From Candidatus Thorarchaeota archaeon (GTDB lineage: Archaea; Asgardarchaeota; Thorarchaeia; Thorarchaeales; Thorarchaeaceae): a stretch of 19,861 nt of DNA. The stretch lies in assembly GCA_016840855.1 (NCBI GenBank), contig JAEORO010000068.1:1-19861 (forward strand), read 5' to 3'. Of the stretch, positions 8,792-19,861 are shown piece after piece. The notes under the pieces are model-generated. The model searched no databases and was not told the DNA's origin. It saw only the letters and a program-made list of their open reading frames with translations. Made by a program: the position numbers and the translations under genes. The first letter of the stretch is position 1. Every line of letters begins with the position of its first letter.

Positions 8792-10282
8792 TTAAGCGAG
8801 TTTCGTAAGTTGTTTTGTTATCAATCGACCTCGCTCAGTTAATCCATAATAGGCTCTTTTTCTATTATCAAATGTGGTTTCAATTCTGGTCTGACTAACA
8901 AGACCTGTACTCCTAAGCTCTGAGAGATGTTGGTATACGCTAGGTATCTTTATTGAAATCCCAAAATCATCAACCAGAGTCTTCCAAATCCCGTATCCAT
9001 ATGACTCACTATCCACTAGAATTTGTAGAATTTGCCGCTTTGTCCTCCCTATCTGAGTCGTAAATTTTCTATCTTCTACTCTGCTAAGCAGATATTCAAG
9101 CTTTGACTGTCCCTTAATCAAAATGCGAGCAATTTCTGGATATTTCAAACCCATACCCGTTGCAACACAAACAATCGTGTCTGAAGGCTGAATCCTATCA
9201 GACCGCAACAACTGGCGCAAGGCTGCAATAGGCGTCGCAGATGCTGGCTCTACAAAAACTCCCTCCCGCCTAGCAATAGAGCTGACTGCATCTAAAGTAT
9301 CCTTGTCAGAAACTGAGATTGCAAACCCGTTTGACTCTCTTATAGCTCTTAGGGCTGTATGACCGCATGATGGATTCCCCATGCCTATATCAAGTGCAAT
9401 AGTGGCACCATCTGCAATTGGAATGATCGCATCTGATCCTTTCATGAAAGCATCAACAATCGGAGCACAGCTCGTTGATTGCACTCCCACCAATCTTGTT
9501 TCTATTTCATCAAGAACACCAATTTCCTGTAGTTCTCTCAATCCTTTCCAAATCATTGATAGATGTCCCCCATTTCCCATCGGAACAATCAACCAATCGG
9601 GTGCGTGCCAATTGAGCTGCTCACAAATTTCGAAGATGGTTGTCTTTACACCCTCTAGAAAAATTGAGCTATAGGCTTTGACAAAATAGCTCTGGCGACT
9701 TGCAATCTGTGCTCTCTCCATAGCCCTCTCGTGGTTCTTAACTACCTCAACATTCGCTCCATATGCTAGGATCTGGTAGAACTTTCCTGTATCAATATTC
9801 CCGGTTTGCGCTATGAATACGTTACTCTCCATTCCAGCCCTAGCAGCATAAGCAACAAGAGAAGCTGCAAGATTTCCAGTTGACCCACAGCACAATGATT
9901 GAAATCCCCTCTCCTTCGCGACTGTTACTTCTACAGCAGTGCCACGATCAATGAATGAACCTGTTGGGTTTGTTGTTTCATCTTTGATATACAATGTATT
10001 TAGTCCAAGGTGTCTAGAGAGTCTGTCGCATTTATGAAGATAAGTTCCACCCTCTCCAAGAGAGATTGCCTTTGATGGAACAGATACAGGTAGAAGTTCG
10101 GAGTACTTCCAGATACCTTGTTTTCTTGAAGAGATTGCTTTTCGATTGACCGTTTTCCCTACAGCAGCTAGGTCATATTTTATTTCAAGATAACTTCCGC
10201 AGTCTGAGCATACTCTTTCGCGAAGATCATCCTGATGCTCCTTTCCACATGTTGTACACTCAAATGATGATATGAATGACAT
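8792..10282 (-). CDS. Threonine-synthase-like fold-type II PLP domain lacking the catalytic Lys, fused to a C-terminal PadR-like wHTH
   Basis: N-terminal Zn ribbon, LGEGGT, NPTGSF-I-DRG (canonical SFKDRG), STGNLAAS, PMGNGG, TGMGLK; C-terminal YGYGIW...SVYQHLSEL...RAYYGLTERG. Confidence 0.85.
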   Translation of the reverse strand: MSFISSFECTTCGKEHQDDLRERVCSDCGSYLEIKYDLAAVGKTVNRKAISSRKQGIWKYSELLPVSVPSKAISLGEGGTYLHKCDRLSRHLGLNTLYIKDETTNPTGSFIDRGTAVEVTVAKERGFQSLCCGSTGNLAASLVAYAARAGMESNVFIAQTGNIDTGKFYQILAYGANVEVVKNHERAMERAQIASRQSYFVKAYSSIFLEGVKTTIFEICEQLNWHAPDWLIVPMGNGGHLSMIWKGLRELQEIGVLDEIETRLVGVQSTSCAPIVDAFMKGSDAIIPIADGATIALDIGMGNPSCGHTALRAIRESNGFAISVSDKDTLDAVSSIARREGVFVEPASATPIAALRQLLRSDRIQPSDTIVCVATGMGLKYPEIARILIKGQSKLEYLLSRVEDRKFTTQIGRTKRQILQILVDSESYGYGIWKTLVDDFGISIKIPSVYQHLSELRSTGLVSQTRIETTFDNRKRAYYGLTERGRLITKQLTKLA

Positions 10283-14970: not shown

Positions 14971-16563
14971 TTATTCATTTTGATAACTCTCGGCTTTTTC
15001 TACTGGTTTAACAAGACCTTGTCGAGCAATCCATCCAAGGATTATAATATTGAGCAACAATACGATAACGAATAGATCACCTTGATAGAAATACTGGAAT
15101 ACAAGTCCTCCAAATGACGGACCGACAGAAGAAAGGAGATACACGAAAAACCAAAACACACTAAGAATTTTCGATGTGTCGTGTCTTGGAAGGTTCTTCT
15201 GGATAATGGTTAGTAATAACAAATACCATACAGCATCGTTAACTGATTTCAATATTAATGCAAGGAATGGGGTGGAAAAAATAGCTCCAAGTCCTGCAAA
15301 TAACAGATTAGCTTGATTGATCAATGCCATTGGTGCCCAATATGGAAAACTTGGTGATATGAGAAGAAGTATCACACAAATTGGCATGATGCTATAAACG
15401 ATCAACGCTGTCAACCGCTCACCACGTCTATCAGAAAATCTTCCAGTCCCAAGCAACACTGGCACTGATATTATGATGGTGAGAATGGTCATGAGGATTA
15501 ACCCTGGTATTTCGATGCCTACTTGTTCATAGATATAGATATACGCGCCGAATCTGAACAGTGCATCACTTATGGCGTCCAATGCTACAATTGCCAACAT
15601 TCCTGGAACCGTCTTGACGAGCAAGCCCACAGCTCTCTTATTATCTTGAATGAAGGATTGAATAAGTGATAGTCCTTCTCGTTTCATCTCTGGTGCTTTA
15701 CCCTCTAGAAGAGCAGCTCTCGCAAGTGCTCCAAAAACAAGAAACAATCCTCCAATAAGGAACATTCGGCGAAGACCTGGTCCAAAACCATCTACTGTAT
15801 TCAGAATGACAAACGCACCAAGAGTAACTACACCAAATATCCTTCCTGCGCTAAAAAGTGAAATCCCTAGTCCACCATGCTTCTTAGGTATATTATCCAT
15901 AATGAACGCAGTTGAACCACCCTTGAAAATATCCATAGTTGAAAAAAGCAATAGAGCTATGATAATCCATGTGAACTCAATAAAGATGCCCATTATCAAA
16001 TTGTATCCTGCCATCATAAGCATAGCAATTACGGAGAGGTGCTTTCTATTACTTACATCACCAACATAACCCCCAACCAAACGTGACACTGCAGAAACTG
16101 CAGCTGTGATGGATAAGATGGCTCCAATTAACCAATACTCCCAGTTTAGTACTTCAAGCAGATAGAGATTGAAGAATGCTCCCATGTAGCTAAATGCTGT
16201 GAATACCCAAGAAGTCGTAAGATATACTGAGTAATTACGCCATGAAAAAATTGTGCGAAGGGAATCTAACAGACTGGGACTCTCTTCCCTGACTTCATAA
16301 AGCCTCTCCTCGAACTTGTCGAGCTTCTCTCTGATTTCGTGAAGTTTCTTTTTCTCATCTTCAATTCTTGCTAATCTTTCTCTCTCTTCTTTCTCTTGCA
16401 ATGATTCCGGTAGGTCTTCCCAAGTGAGAAGATCCAGTTCAATTTTAGAGGGTTCATCATCCAATTCACGTTTGCTCCTATCATCAGAATGCTGGATGAG
16501 TTTCACTATTCTCTTGTCTCCAAACTGGTTGAAATGTGTACTGCCGTTCCAATTGCAACTCAT
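14971..16563 (-). CDS. MFS transporter with charged N-terminal extension
   Basis: About 12 TM helices; motif A variants GYVGDVSNRK and GRFSDRRGER; start uncertain and probably downstream of 16563. Confidence 0.85.
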   Translation of the reverse strand: MSCNWNGSTHFNQFGDKRIVKLIQHSDDRSKRELDDEPSKIELDLLTWEDLPESLQEKEERERLARIEDEKKKLHEIREKLDKFEERLYEVREESPSLLDSLRTIFSWRNYSVYLTTSWVFTAFSYMGAFFNLYLLEVLNWEYWLIGAILSITAAVSAVSRLVGGYVGDVSNRKHLSVIAMLMMAGYNLIMGIFIEFTWIIIALLLFSTMDIFKGGSTAFIMDNIPKKHGGLGISLFSAGRIFGVVTLGAFVILNTVDGFGPGLRRMFLIGGLFLVFGALARAALLEGKAPEMKREGLSLIQSFIQDNKRAVGLLVKTVPGMLAIVALDAISDALFRFGAYIYIYEQVGIEIPGLILMTILTIIISVPVLLGTGRFSDRRGERLTALIVYSIMPICVILLLISPSFPYWAPMALINQANLLFAGLGAIFSTPFLALILKSVNDAVWYLLLLTIIQKNLPRHDTSKILSVFWFFVYLLSSVGPSFGGLVFQYFYQGDLFVIVLLLNIIILGWIARQGLVKPVEKAESYQNE

Positions 16564-16730: not shown

Positions 16731-16982
16731 CTACTCGAACAATAGCACCTTAATGTCGCCGTCCGCTGTGGGGATGGCCATGATTTTTTGTGTGCCGATG
16801 TCCGCTGTAACCACGAGACTTTCTGGTGGAGCCTTTGCATTAATAAGATTCCTTACTGCTAACTCGAGGTTTATTGCAACGAGTCTTACAGTTTCTGAAT
16901 CTGTGAAGGGATCCACCTCACGTCCGTTCTCGGGCGTGGTGATATCTCCGAATAATGGTTCGATTCTATGTGTTCGTATCAT
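16731..16982 (-). CDS. Small hypothetical protein, 83 aa
   Basis: GGAGG upstream of the ATG; globular alpha/beta-like composition; downstream hairpin. Confidence 0.65.
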   Translation of the reverse strand: MIRTHRIEPLFGDITTPENGREVDPFTDSETVRLVAINLELAVRNLINAKAPPESLVVTADIGTQKIMAIPTADGDIKVLLFE

Positions 16983-17213
16983 TTTTCATTTTTCCTCCAT
17001 TGCGGGTATACCGCTTTTTTTCTTTATATTACCAGGGTTCAGGAACTTGATCGCCTACTCTTGGGTCCATTTTTTATTTCTCTCCTCGAATACTTCATTG
17101 TTCTCTTATCTATCTCAAAGGTCGGTATTGGATTCACTCCCGGACCAGTTTTTCTTGGGGGGCTGGTTTCGGGTTCCAATTCTCCTTCGTTGTAGATTCT
17201 CTTTGTTTGACTC

Positions 17214-17641
17214 TCACACTGCAGAGAATGACAAGAATCCATACCAACCGTGCCAGCAACGATTCATTTCCACTGACATGCTTGCCCGCATACTCCTATG
17301 TCCCAGTCAGCATAACTGATGCTAACTAGAACGGGCTAGGATCTTCGCATGGCGGCTGCACTACAGTAGAAATGCCGCGCACAACACCGATTGATAGCAA
17401 CTCTAATGCTGCGCGACTCTTAGTCATACTCTCGTAAAGAGTCCTCATCCGGTCAGTGCTAATCGTCTTCACCTCCTTCGTCGCTGGTTGTTGATATGGC
17501 GGATCCACTTGCTACTCTTTGGCTACTACGGCCTATGTTTTTCTGTTTCATATTTGGCCGCCTACCTTAGACTAACTAGGAAGATAGATACAGCTGACAA
17601 AATCAGCATAACCTAGCTTCTGAGCTCAGTCTGCAGTGTGA
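17214..17641 (-). ncRNA. Candidate large structured RNA of unknown family (core domain; may extend to about 17025-17675)
   Basis: Perfect 12-bp closing helix plus about 12 nested helices found by eye; many are completed by G-U pairs only on the minus strand; no convincing CDS. Confidence 0.65.
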
Positions 17642-17830
17642 ATCCAAGATAGAGAGTAGGAAACCGGTATAATAAGGGAGCGTCTGACAGAGAACCACTT
17701 CTAGTAAGCCTCTTAGCGCTATTTAGAGCCTTATTTGAGAAACGCCTTCAAAAAAACAACTGAAATTGAATGCAAATCGTGAAAAATTGGACTTGCGACA
17801 CATTCATTACTAAACAATTGGCCATAATAC

Positions 17831-18940
17831 GTGGGTATTCTCTTGACAATACCGAAGCCACTTGGTCGCAGTGATCTACGTTTATTGAATCGACTAGCAA
17901 TAGCTCCCTCGATGAGGCAAGCAGCTCTTGCTCGTGAACTGGGTGTGACACGATCGGCTATAAACCAATTGTGGGCAAAACTAACAAACGAATATGGATT
18001 GACTATTCGTGGCAATCTTGACTATGGTCAAATTGGTCTCCGCTCTCTATTTGGTTGGGCACATGCGCCAGGAATGTCAGATGTTATAACGAAATTTTCA
18101 CGATGGCTTGAATCTAATAACTTGGTAACAAGAGTTACTAAATCGAGGATGTCTTCGAGTTTGGGAGAGATAGTGTATTTTGAAGCAATTACTCCAATCG
18201 ATAGCAGGTATTCTTGGTTTCAAAAACAGATTGATCGATTTAGAAAGAGACCCTATAGCCTTAGCATCGAGCTAGATGAAACTCAAAATATTTCGCATCA
18301 TCTGAACTTAGCTCTGTTCGATGGCAGCATGTGGTCATTCAGTGATGACTTTCGCCTTCTGGCAACTATTGATGCTGCTAAGGGATATGTTGATGTTCTA
18401 CCGTCTGTTGGTGCCGTAAAACAGAGTAATGGAACTACTCTTCTATTGGAAGATTTGATTGTGGCTTCTGCAATAGAGTCGAACTATTATACGACATCAA
18501 TTGAGGTATCCAAGAGATTTTCTAAGCTGGGTCTAAAGCCTCGCGCAGGAAGAACACTTCGTAGAAAGATTTCCAATTTACGAAAAAATCTTGCTCTCCC
18601 TTATGTTGACCTCCAAAATATCGGGCTTCCTCAGAAACTCATAGTTTGTGTCAAGACAGAATCCCTGGCATCTCCATTTTCTCGAGTGCTTCAAGTACAA
18701 TCGAGCACTTTTCCCAAAGCACGAGTCATATCTGGTCAATCACTAACAATACTTGACCTAGAAACTCCCAGAAAAGTTGATTGGTTAAATTTAACACAGA
18801 TTCTCACTAATCTTGCAGGTAACACTTCAGAGATATGCACATTTATAGCGGACCGTAACGAGGTTGAAAAACGACTTGAGAGTGTGGTGCCAGCAATAGC
18901 ATCACGCATGCCCTCTGGAGAACATGACCCTTGGCGTTGA
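17831..18940 (+). CDS. Lrp/AsnC-like regulator with tandem wHTH modules
   Basis: DLRLLNRL...QAALARELGVTRSAINQLWAKL...LDYGQIGL; second HTH-like segment RTLRRKISNL...VDLQNIGL. Confidence 0.8.
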   Translation: MGILLTIPKPLGRSDLRLLNRLAIAPSMRQAALARELGVTRSAINQLWAKLTNEYGLTIRGNLDYGQIGLRSLFGWAHAPGMSDVITKFSRWLESNNLVTRVTKSRMSSSLGEIVYFEAITPIDSRYSWFQKQIDRFRKRPYSLSIELDETQNISHHLNLALFDGSMWSFSDDFRLLATIDAAKGYVDVLPSVGAVKQSNGTTLLLEDLIVASAIESNYYTTSIEVSKRFSKLGLKPRAGRTLRRKISNLRKNLALPYVDLQNIGLPQKLIVCVKTESLASPFSRVLQVQSSTFPKARVISGQSLTILDLETPRKVDWLNLTQILTNLAGNTSEICTFIADRNEVEKRLESVVPAIASRMPSGEHDPWR

Positions 18941-18946
18941 AAGGAA

Positions 18947-19861
18947 TTGGATAACACTCGAATAGGAATAGATGAATTATCTCAAGATGCACCTTCACGC
19001 AAGATTATGCCTGTTGATATTGAAACGCCTTATGATGATCTATTCCCTGAGGTTGCTGAACCTGCTGTGTTATTCTATCTAGATGCGATGCGAATCTATC
19101 TTGGCATGTGTGCAGGCACAGTCACCATGGAGGAGGCTTTGAAAGCTGTTGAAAATTTAAAAGCTAATCCGGAATTTGTTGCTTATCCTACAAACCCAAC
19201 ACTAGTACCAATTAATGAAACTTTCAAGAATAAAATATTGGAGAACTTGAAGACACTAAGTAAGTTTAACCTATTGACAAAGGACTCTGTTAGGTCTGCA
19301 TATACCTTTGCCTTTCTCATGGAAGAAACTCCAATCACAAAAACTGATTTTGATGTTCTAAAGATTCTAGCAATCAATCCCACAATATCTTTAGTCAAAG
19401 GAGCCGAAGCATTACAGATGGCCCCCCGAACTGTTGCAAGAGCTTTGGAACGCCTCCGTGACCGACACTTTGTAAGATTCAGTGCTATACTCGATTATTC
19501 AGCTTTCAACATTCAGTCTGCTATGCTCTTTTTCACACTTAAAGAGGGCATTGATTGGGCTGAGGTGGAACAAGGATTTGCTGAATATAGGTTCACGAAG
19601 ACTCTTCTCAAGACCACAATGACTGAACTTGGATATGTAAGTTTCATGATCCCCAATCTGAAACGAAATCTGTCTGCCTTTCATGATTCAATAAGATCGG
19701 TATCAAAGACCTACTTTGACTATTCTAGTCTTCATTATCAGACAGGGTCCGGTGCAAGATTAAATCTCTCTCTTTTCGAAGATGGTCAGTGGACTCTAGC
19801 TAGAGTCATCGAGTCTCCCTTTGAAGAAGAGATGCAGGATATTGAGAAACTGCCAGTATTA
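18947..19861 (+). CDS. Second Lrp/AsnC-like wHTH regulator, partial (runs off the window; absent from the ORF track)
   Basis: Hand translation from TTG 18947 is open for 305 codons: DFDVLKILAINPTISLVKGAEALQMAPRTVARALERL...LDYSAFNI...NLSLFEDGQW, paralogous to the upstream gene (NLALFDGSMW). Confidence 0.8.
   Translation, partial: MDNTRIGIDELSQDAPSRKIMPVDIETPYDDLFPEVAEPAVLFYLDAMRIYLGMCAGTVTMEEALKAVENLKANPEFVAYPTNPTLVPINETFKNKILENLKTLSKFNLLTKDSVRSAYTFAFLMEETPITKTDFDVLKILAINPTISLVKGAEALQMAPRTVARALERLRDRHFVRFSAILDYSAFNIQSAMLFFTLKEGIDWAEVEQGFAEYRFTKTLLKTTMTELGYVSFMIPNLKRNLSAFHDSIRSVSKTYFDYSSLHYQTGSGARLNLSLFEDGQWTLARVIESPFEEEMQDIEKLPVL

Follow-up and report, generated by a model that had tools for sequence, protein, structure and literature searches.

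The stretch analysed here (the window) comprises 19,861 nucleotides (nt) of a contig from a Candidatus Thorarchaeota archaeon, a member of the Asgard archaea, and the element in question lies at 17025–17675, where a first-pass annotation made from the letters of the DNA had described nested inverted repeats and proposed an RNA switch or an RNA of about 650 nt. That annotation named no strand for the RNA; the feature was found on the minus strand. On balance, the stretch appears to be part of a structured polycistronic messenger RNA (mRNA) rather than a free non-coding RNA, and the order along this mRNA is a predicted archaeal TATA box, a leader of about 170 nt, a 45-codon open reading frame (ORF1), a 13-codon proline-rich micro-ORF, a gene for a protein of 83 amino acids (ORF3), and the gene of an MFS transporter (Table 1). 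The reading developed below, to which a probability of roughly 0.55 can be assigned, is that the 5′ end of this mRNA would be closed in a long helix with a three-way junction, and that translation of ORF1 would be low or conditional.

Transcription unit and coding content

The gene layout of the mRNA is conserved within one family. The segment 17000–17660 was matched by blastn in 25 of the 27 other genomes of the genus, with synteny reaching through the 83-amino-acid gene, while a shorter query gave no match in 16 genomes from other families. A profile built from the ORF1 peptide found matches in 63 of the 76 family genomes and, outside the family, in two of 224 other genomes of the phylum, both marginal (E = 0.004 and 0.006); database relatives of the small protein carry the label 'Candidatus Thorarchaeota archaeon'. 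The assembly with the feature amounts to 3.36 Mb in 259 contigs and is 92% complete, and the sole match of 17000–17700 in it is the segment itself; on the grounds of this single copy a miniature inverted-repeat or mobile element was rejected. RNase P RNA, signal recognition particle (SRP) RNA and other known RNAs were rejected as well, since none of the 4227 Rfam models matched the whole window at the gathering threshold, and the search at E ≤ 10 returned just two chance-level matches, of 14.5 and 11.2 bits. The archaeal RNase P RNA of this genome, which is normal, is located on another contig. A narrow full-text search of the literature turned up no description of the RNA or of the peptides, with prior publication still possible. 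In the genus genomes G006, G010, G012, G016, G019, G021 and G022 the contigs stop inside the element, the likely cause being that the ORF part is near-identical between species and tangles metagenome assemblies.

The box TTATTATA, which lies inside an invariant block with variable flanks, would act as the promoter TATA box of the unit, and in other genera a similar TATA-type box precedes the ORF1 stop by 290–360 nt. In the 15 aligned genus sequences about 20 variable bases follow the TTATTATA block, after which conservation begins abruptly at about 17648; judged by this pattern and by the spacing from the box, transcription is predicted to start near 17643–17648. Part of the stretch occurs in 20 RNA-library runs from 12 studies, and contigs from four of these runs cover 17103–17624 and continue into the 83-amino-acid gene. 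In two metatranscriptome examples, X1 record 1 spans 17103–17392 with one mismatch, and X2 record 8 runs from 17442 to 17070 and then on to 16946–17005. These contigs carry no strand information and reveal neither ends nor levels; the lack of cover upstream of 17624 in the contigs of the four runs was given no evidential weight, because contigs cannot show a start. The first-pass annotation had allowed for a transcript that reads through past the core, and the contigs do bridge the 3′ arm of the closing helix, which, as they come from RNA libraries, is a hint of read-through and not proof. The occurrence in libraries together with the bridging contigs fits a stable read-through messenger.

The earlier suggestion that a core RNA is released from a precursor was not borne out, as a 45-codon ORF under purifying selection lies in this core behind the sequence GGAGGTG. 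Its frame is open to the TAG stop at 17326–17328 in all 15 genus sequences, and the ratio of nonsynonymous to synonymous substitution rates (dN/dS) is 0.24 for codons −45 to −34 and 0.087 for codons −33 to −1, compared with 1.28 for the three codons upstream of codon −45 and with 1.6 and 3.2 in the two other frames. In most members of the family 151 nt separate GGAGGTG from the end of the ORF1 stop. Codon −45, which lies 6–7 nt past GGAGGTG, is ATT in 22, ATC in 11 and ATA in 10 sequences, that is, in 43 of 52 unique family sequences; the remaining nine are shifted by insertions or deletions relative to the fixed −45 position, and several of them keep an Ile-Ser start one codon later. In eight sequences an in-frame stop occurs at most two codons upstream of −45, and the next canonical start comes only at codon −33 or −32. 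The most economical reading of these patterns is that ORF1 is a 45-codon gene under purifying selection with a near-cognate AUH start codon (AUU, AUC or AUA).

Like ORF3, the ORF1 peptide gave no Pfam or NCBIfam match, no PDB sequence match better than E = 1.2 and no usable Atlas match. It is predicted by AlphaFold2 to form one long helix (residues 3–34) with a proline-rich tail (predicted local distance difference test, pLDDT, 74); the modelled helix is amphipathic with charged residues and suggests no evident membrane toxin. The C-terminus reads QPPCEDP.PF-stop, and the peptide has one invariant Cys. In the consensus fold the ribosome-binding sequence GGAGGU (17470–17476) pairs with the Gln-Pro-Pro codons of ORF1 itself (17353–17359, minus strand); this helix (helix 8) yields no evidence of covariation because all its pairs are invariant. 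The first Pro codon in this pairing is CCT in 2 of 45 sequences, compared with 25 of 100 at the two other conserved Pro codons, a difference which, the sequences being related, is a hint.

That the element is instead a stand-alone non-coding RNA of about 430 nt that is released from a longer precursor by processing and carries the 45-codon frame incidentally is highly improbable. Such an RNA would be in keeping with the strong fold (z = −6.5 for 17205–17650), the very high nucleotide conservation (92–95% column identity across 17440–17381) and the presence in many RNA libraries, but substitutions in the region are codon-periodic, dN/dS is 0.09–0.24 in frame and exceeds 1 out of frame, 15 genera retain the frame with its stop and ribosome-binding site, and the RNA contigs bridge the proposed 3′ processing site.

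Proposed pairing of the transcript 5′ end

The core of the structure is bounded by the closing helix (P1b), one column of which is C-G in 15 sequences, U-G in two and U-A in one. A consensus of the core computed with RNAalifold from 18 unique genus sequences contains 76 pairs; 97.1% of the cells are paired, compared with 95.4% in shuffles, and 10 pairs show changes on both sides, compared with 4.0 in shuffles, neither value being reached in any of 500 shuffles, while slid controls gave 30–46% paired cells. The folding z-score of the longer segment 17095–17647 is −7.3. Inside the closing helix a second long-range helix, here called ORF-enclosing, is found family-wide. Its 5′ strand consists of the 32 nt that immediately precede the ribosome-binding site, and its 3′ strand lies 36–130 nt past the ORF1 stop. 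The natural pairing was matched by no more than 5 of 200 shuffles in 38 of the 47 unique family sequences. Own partners reach a mean of −26.9 kcal/mol, compared with −18.0 when the partners come from other genera, and for 32 of the 47 sequences no more than 5% of the foreign partners do equally well. This helix covaries, because the paired words differ between genera. RNAduplex applied to the whole flanks was discarded as uninformative, as everything pairs.

A repeat search of the window recovered, at the coordinates first listed, the exact inverted repeats of 12 nt (the closing helix), 10, 9 and 8 nt. Five hundred dinucleotide-preserving shuffles of 17025–17675 served as the chance test: four repeats of at least 8 nt were observed and 2.15 expected (83 of 500 shuffles reach four), three of at least 9 nt with 0.51 expected (3/500), two of at least 10 nt with 0.13 expected (4/500), and one of at least 12 nt with 0.01 expected (4/500). 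Thus, as a set the long repeats exceed chance, a lone 8-nt repeat is at chance level and a lone 9-nt repeat is weakly above it. Counted in fixed alignment columns, the three outer pairs taken together have 56.1% of cells paired, compared with 54.5% in shuffles (69/500 reach it). The 8-bp pair, thought to be nested further out, is complete (8/8) only in the window and reaches 1–5 of 8 in the other 14 aligned sequences; its upstream arm, being located in the spacer that separates the TATA box from the predicted start, is probably not transcribed, and its downstream arm (17054–17061) falls within variable codons of the micro-ORF. The 9-bp pair, described as pseudoknot-like, is complete in the window, reaches 7/9 in the closest relative and 1–5 of 9 in the other 13. 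No measure applied to these two pairs beats the shuffles, and both are regarded as chance complementarities on the comparison of aligned relatives. Of the three outer pairs tested in relatives, one survived.

This is the 10-bp pair (pair A, or P1a). For all 18 unique genus sequences, the region of about 135 nt between the closing helix and the micro-ORF was searched for the longest exact complement of the respective 5′-terminal 11-mer, and in 10 of them it measures 8–10 nt: 10 nt in the window, 9 in five relatives, 8 in one relative, and 9 in each of L016, L019 and L024. Among about 400 other 11-nt windows of the same RNA, 0–5 equal this length, and in 7 of the 10 sequences none does. The pairing words change together between lineages. 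In the window clade the 5′ word (C)UUGGAUUC(AC) has its own complement; L016 and L019 carry UUGGUUUCA at the 5′ end with UGAAACCAA, the A to U change of the 5′ word being matched in the complement; and L024 carries UUGGUUCAC with GUGAACCAA, one base being lost from the 5′ word and the matching base from the complement. The 3′ partner lies after the closing helix at a distance of +77 nt for the window, +24/+26 nt for L016/L019 and +103 nt for L024, and because of these differing distances column-based counts miss pair A. The conservation of the 10-bp pair is borne out by the matched lineage changes of the alignment-free search, but not by covariation in fixed columns. Pair A probably forms a true helix in the RNA, prolonging the closing helix. 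Ten of the 18 sequences also, or instead, carry, two bases past the closing helix, the word GUUC[AG]A, whose pairing with UUGGAU is possible if G-U pairs are allowed.

It is unlikely that the outer pairs are irrelevant, the closing and ORF-enclosing helices alone being functional and the 10-bp pair a product of drift in a region rich in GAATC/GATTC. The column counts show no covariation for any outer pair, 8 of the 18 sequences lack a long exact complement, and GAGAATC-type words recur downstream of the closing helix, raising chance matches; yet three 5′ variants each find a perfect 9–10-nt complement in the same region, where by arithmetic an exact 9-mer is expected about 5 times in 10,000 per sequence, and the comparison with other windows of the same RNA points the same way.

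A feature of the DNA is considered very unlikely. By this account the arms would not be RNA helices but remnants of an insertion into an ancestral, continuous 18-bp inverted repeat, or binding sites of the divergently encoded winged-helix regulators. The reverse complement of the 18-nt 5′ end equals the closing arm plus the distal arm exactly, with GTGA at both junctions; the 5′ arm overlaps with the predicted start, where operators typically lie; and two winged-helix genes lie divergently upstream. The stretch is, however, single-copy in the genome and therefore no active repeat element, the sequence right after the closing helix is homologous across clades and not inserted, and half-sites 400–500 bp apart would be unusual for an operator. 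Changes compatible with G-U pairing, namely C to U in L016/L019 and A to G in L004, are as expected for RNA pairing and not for DNA symmetry.

The first-pass annotation regarded pair A and the closing helix as partly mutually exclusive through a shared UCAC. The sharing is real in the window, but the exclusion is small, the overlap in relatives being 2–4 nt; because only these few nucleotides are shared and they can migrate, the two helices are largely compatible rather than exclusive, and the overlap fits a three-way junction as well as a switch. The junction itself is suggested by the variable domain with its own hairpin (hairpin D) that separates the two 3′ partners of the 5′ end. The pieces of this hairpin are present as described earlier (ATTGGA 17127–17132/TCCAAT 17175–17180, CCCG 17139–17142/CGGG 17170–17173, ACCAG 17144–17148/CTGGT 17163–17167), and the arm 17128–17137 does have in it a rival local partner. 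Hairpin D occurs in the local minimum free energy (MFE) structure of window-clade sequences, while other clades of the genus have a hairpin with a different apical stem.

An RNA switch, in which the arm 17128–17137 toggles between the transcript 5′ end and hairpin D (ATTGGA, 17175–17180), and the 5′ end in turn changes partner among this arm, the closing helix and the proximal GUUCAA-type site, thereby setting expression of the micro-ORF, the 83-amino-acid gene and the transporter, is doubtful but retains some probability. The 5′ strand of hairpin D repeats the 5′-terminal word of the transcript, TTGGA[TA], so that in the window clade the two are rivals for one 3′ arm. In five of the eight sequences of this clade a G follows the arm and lengthens the pairing with the 5′ end (C-G) but not hairpin D (A-G). 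The 5′ end has a proximal and an exact distal partner in L006 and L007, and a proximal and a distal partner requiring G-U in L004; single-sequence folds prefer hairpin D, whereas the comparative data favour pair A. Against a switch, no ligand-binding or sensor element was identified, the overlap with the closing helix is confined to the 2–4 nt mentioned, the basal stem of hairpin D is kept only in the window clade, and other genera lack the whole domain yet retain the micro-ORF and ORF3. In folds of 19 family sequences neither alternative occludes the ribosome-binding site of the micro-ORF or of ORF3, no conserved pair of mutually exclusive helices is tied to the downstream ribosome-binding sites, and no attenuator-like hairpin before ORF3 is consistent. 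The switch idea is thus unsupported.

In the preferred reading of a messenger with a closed 5′ end, transcription would begin about 20–25 nt past the TATA box, and about 18 nucleotides at the start of the transcript would be fully paired, the inner 12 in the closing helix and the outer 6–10 with the distal arm of pair A. The variable hairpin domain would branch between these two 3′ partners to give a three-way junction, at which the shared 2–4 nt could migrate between the closing helix and pair A. Inside the closure, the family-wide ORF-enclosing helix would bracket ORF1 with its weak AUU/AUC/AUA start 6–7 nt past GGAGGUG. Sequestration of the 5′ end may stabilise the mRNA, and the closure together with the weak start codon may hold ORF1 translation low or make it conditional.

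Several observations weigh against this reading. The transcription start is predicted only, and a start at 17645 would cost pair A two or three base pairs. The core consensus was counted on the same alignment from which it was derived, and the alignment-free search for pair A was devised after the data had been seen. In fixed MAFFT columns pair A has no two-sided changes and 66.7% of its cells are paired; in 8 of the 18 genus sequences the exact complement does not exceed 7 nt; and the outermost 5′ base is uncompensated in two variants, G021 (pieces L010 and L083), with 7/8 pairs, and L085, a fourth genome of the L016 type, with 8/9. The single-sequence fold of 17095–17647 contains pair A in neither the MFE nor the centroid structure, the MFE structure pairing the 5′ end with 17500–17508 and both retaining hairpin D. 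Outside the genus a comparable 5′–3′ complement, sought in MFE folds and as an exact complement, was found in just one of the 15 sequences tested (L056, genus g17), at a different place; owing to this rarity the closure is seen as a genus-level feature. In L056 the exact complement of a 10-nt word close to the predicted 5′ end is found 5 nt past the ORF1 stop, and the same two words occur in L057 of the same genus.

Downstream and neighbouring genes

Behind the sequence GGAG(G)AGAGAA, a micro-ORF of 11–14 codons ending in P-[WF]-stop is present in 44 of the 47 unique full-length family sequences examined, its end motif being P[ED]P[WF]-stop. In L053, L068, L069 and L072, from other genera of the family, it occurs twice, the copies lying 94–186 nt apart with identical or nearly identical peptides. 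The small G+C hairpin between the micro-ORF and ORF3 is missing from the folds other than those counted in Table 1 and leaves the ribosome-binding site uncovered. ORF3 is 82–85 amino acids long in the family and belongs to a protein family with just 9 clusters among 1.84 billion representatives. Its predicted fold is confident from residue 20 (mean pLDDT 81) and shows a helix packed on a small sheet; the top Foldseek rows are Roadblock/LC7 and LAMTOR-type chains (E ≥ 0.13), and VIA-align lists PAS, roadblock and longin-like chains with a best Z of 5.4. On these models the likeness of ORF3 to Roadblock/LC7, LAMTOR and PAS-like folds is a weak lead. A near-invariant Cys is found at position 55. 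After ORF3, an open frame with the same conserved N-terminal motif as that of the transporter gene follows in other genera.

Upstream of the operon, and divergent from it, two tandem genes occupy 17831–18940 and 18947–19861 of the plus strand; their winged-helix matches are weak (MarR_2 and HTH_24, both below the Pfam cut-offs). Farther away, at 8792–10282 of the minus strand, a 496-amino-acid protein is encoded that combines a pyridoxal phosphate-dependent enzyme domain (PALP, E = 1.5e-66) with a DNA-binding domain of PadR type at its C-terminus (E = 4.3e-10).

Table 1. Features of the transcription unit, in window coordinates and in order of transcription.
Feature	Coordinates	Strand	Basis
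Predicted archaeal TATA box, TTATTATA	17668..17675	-	Inside invariant block; invariant in 15/15 aligned genus sequences, flanks variable
5′ arm of 8-bp pair (judged chance)	17653..17660	-	In variable spacer between TATA box and predicted start
Predicted transcription start zone	17643..17648	-	20–25 nt past TATA box, where conservation begins
P1a (pair A) 5′ arm, predicted 5′-terminal nucleotides of transcript	17638..17647	-	Exact 10-nt complement of 17128–17137; lineage variants matched
P1b (closing helix) 5′ arm	17630..17641	-	12/12 pairs in 16/18 genus sequences, 10/12 in the other 2
Structured 5′ leader, hairpins with compensatory changes	17477..17629	-	Helices 2–4 hold 7/10 of the pairs with two-sided changes
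5′ arm of 9-bp pair (judged chance)	17582..17590	-	Fully paired only in window
ORF-enclosing helix, 5′ strand	17477..17508	-	Ends 0–4 nt before ribosome-binding site; shuffles and cross-genus partners
Shine-Dalgarno-like GGAGGTG of ORF1	17470..17476	-	Invariant in genus
ORF1, 45 codons + stop, starts at ATT	17326..17463	-	Frame kept in 15/15 aligned sequences
ORF-enclosing helix, 3′ strand	17220..17264	-	Window +62 to +106 past ORF1 stop; consensus helices 5–7
P1b (closing helix) 3′ arm	17214..17225	-	Exact 12-nt repeat and consensus
Variable domain separating the two 3′ partners of the 5′ end, with hairpin D (17127–17180)	17138..17213	-	Partner distances and local MFE
P1a (pair A) 3′ arm	17128..17137	-	Overlaps 3′ strand of hairpin D basal stem
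3′ arm of 9-bp pair (judged chance)	17107..17115	-	Column conservation and shuffle counts
Micro-ORF, 13 codons + stop, proline-rich end (PEPW)	17029..17070	-	Ribosome-binding site 17080–17087
Small G+C hairpin between micro-ORF and 83-amino-acid gene	17002..17014	-	In MFE of 9/19 folded sequences
83-amino-acid gene (ORF3), GGAGG at 16994–16998	16731..16982	-	Conserved in 24/24 family loci examined
MFS transporter gene, last conserved gene of unit	14971..16563	-	Pfam MFS_1, E = 1.6e-23

Comparison with known systems and significance

According to the passages on hok in PMC9841398, a paired 5′ end stabilises an mRNA and keeps it closed, the tac/fbi fold-back of the hok mRNA (hok/Sok, plasmid R1) being the classic case. 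The likeness to the present locus lies in the 5′–3′ long-distance closure: here about 18 nt at the 5′ end would pair with segments 400–500 nt downstream and enclose a 45-codon ORF. Unlike in the hok case, the locus is single-copy, syntenic and family-wide (63/76 genomes) rather than mobile or patchy and multi-copy, the ORF1 peptide is a predicted long amphipathic helix with a proline-rich tail and no evident membrane toxin, three further genes follow on the mRNA, the host is an archaeon, and no antisense RNA is known. By analogy, the architecture may be said to resemble hok-type closure, whereas the distribution is not that of a type I toxin–antitoxin system.

A second likeness concerns the small ORFs. 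As set out in the parts of PMC9082881 that treat it, the upstream open reading frame (uORF) of mammalian AZIN1 has an AUU start and a C-terminal PPW motif and is subject to polyamine and eIF5A control, a mechanism that depends on the queuing of scanning ribosomes. Both systems would share a conserved near-cognate start and a proline-rich, aromatic, stop-proximal motif upstream of a regulated gene; the archaeal unit, in contrast, has Shine-Dalgarno-type sites, and its motifs are related but not identical to Pro-Pro-Trp, so that the likeness would be one of logic only. Following that logic, the unit might be an Asgard translational sensor whose translation hangs on aIF5A, polyamine or proline status, which is a speculative idea of low probability. 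Its parts, conceivably, would be the weak AUH start, the ribosome-binding site that can pair with the Pro-Pro codons of the ORF itself, and the proline-rich stop-proximal tails of two successive small ORFs; equally speculatively, its output would come from the competition between pair A and hairpin D, relaying the state to the 83-amino-acid protein and the MFS transporter.

The Salmonella mgtA and mgtCBR leaders also place short proline-rich ORFs (MgtL, MgtP) within a long structured leader before a transporter gene, and mgtA-type leaders act through mutually exclusive attenuator hairpins. In the 19 family sequences folded here, by contrast, no conserved alternative hairpins surround the downstream ribosome-binding sites, and one of the 'leader' ORFs has 45 codons and is conserved over its full length. 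Large structured RNAs held in Rfam include OLE, GOLLD, ROOL, HEARO, RNase P and SRP RNA; the present element is similar to these in its length of about 430 nt, strong fold and terminal closing helix, but differs from them in encoding a protein and in having no Rfam match beyond the chance-level ones at E ≤ 10.

For annotation, the locus teaches that a well-folded and highly conserved 'non-coding' core can conceal a protein gene, and that the long exact inverted repeats of a single sequence need testing in relatives. To our knowledge, post-transcriptional control in Asgard archaea is almost wholly uncharted. If the reading proposed here is true, the locus would offer a testable case of an mRNA with its 5′ end locked in a long helix, together with a family-wide small gene whose start codon is never a canonical one and two small ORFs with a common proline-rich tail.

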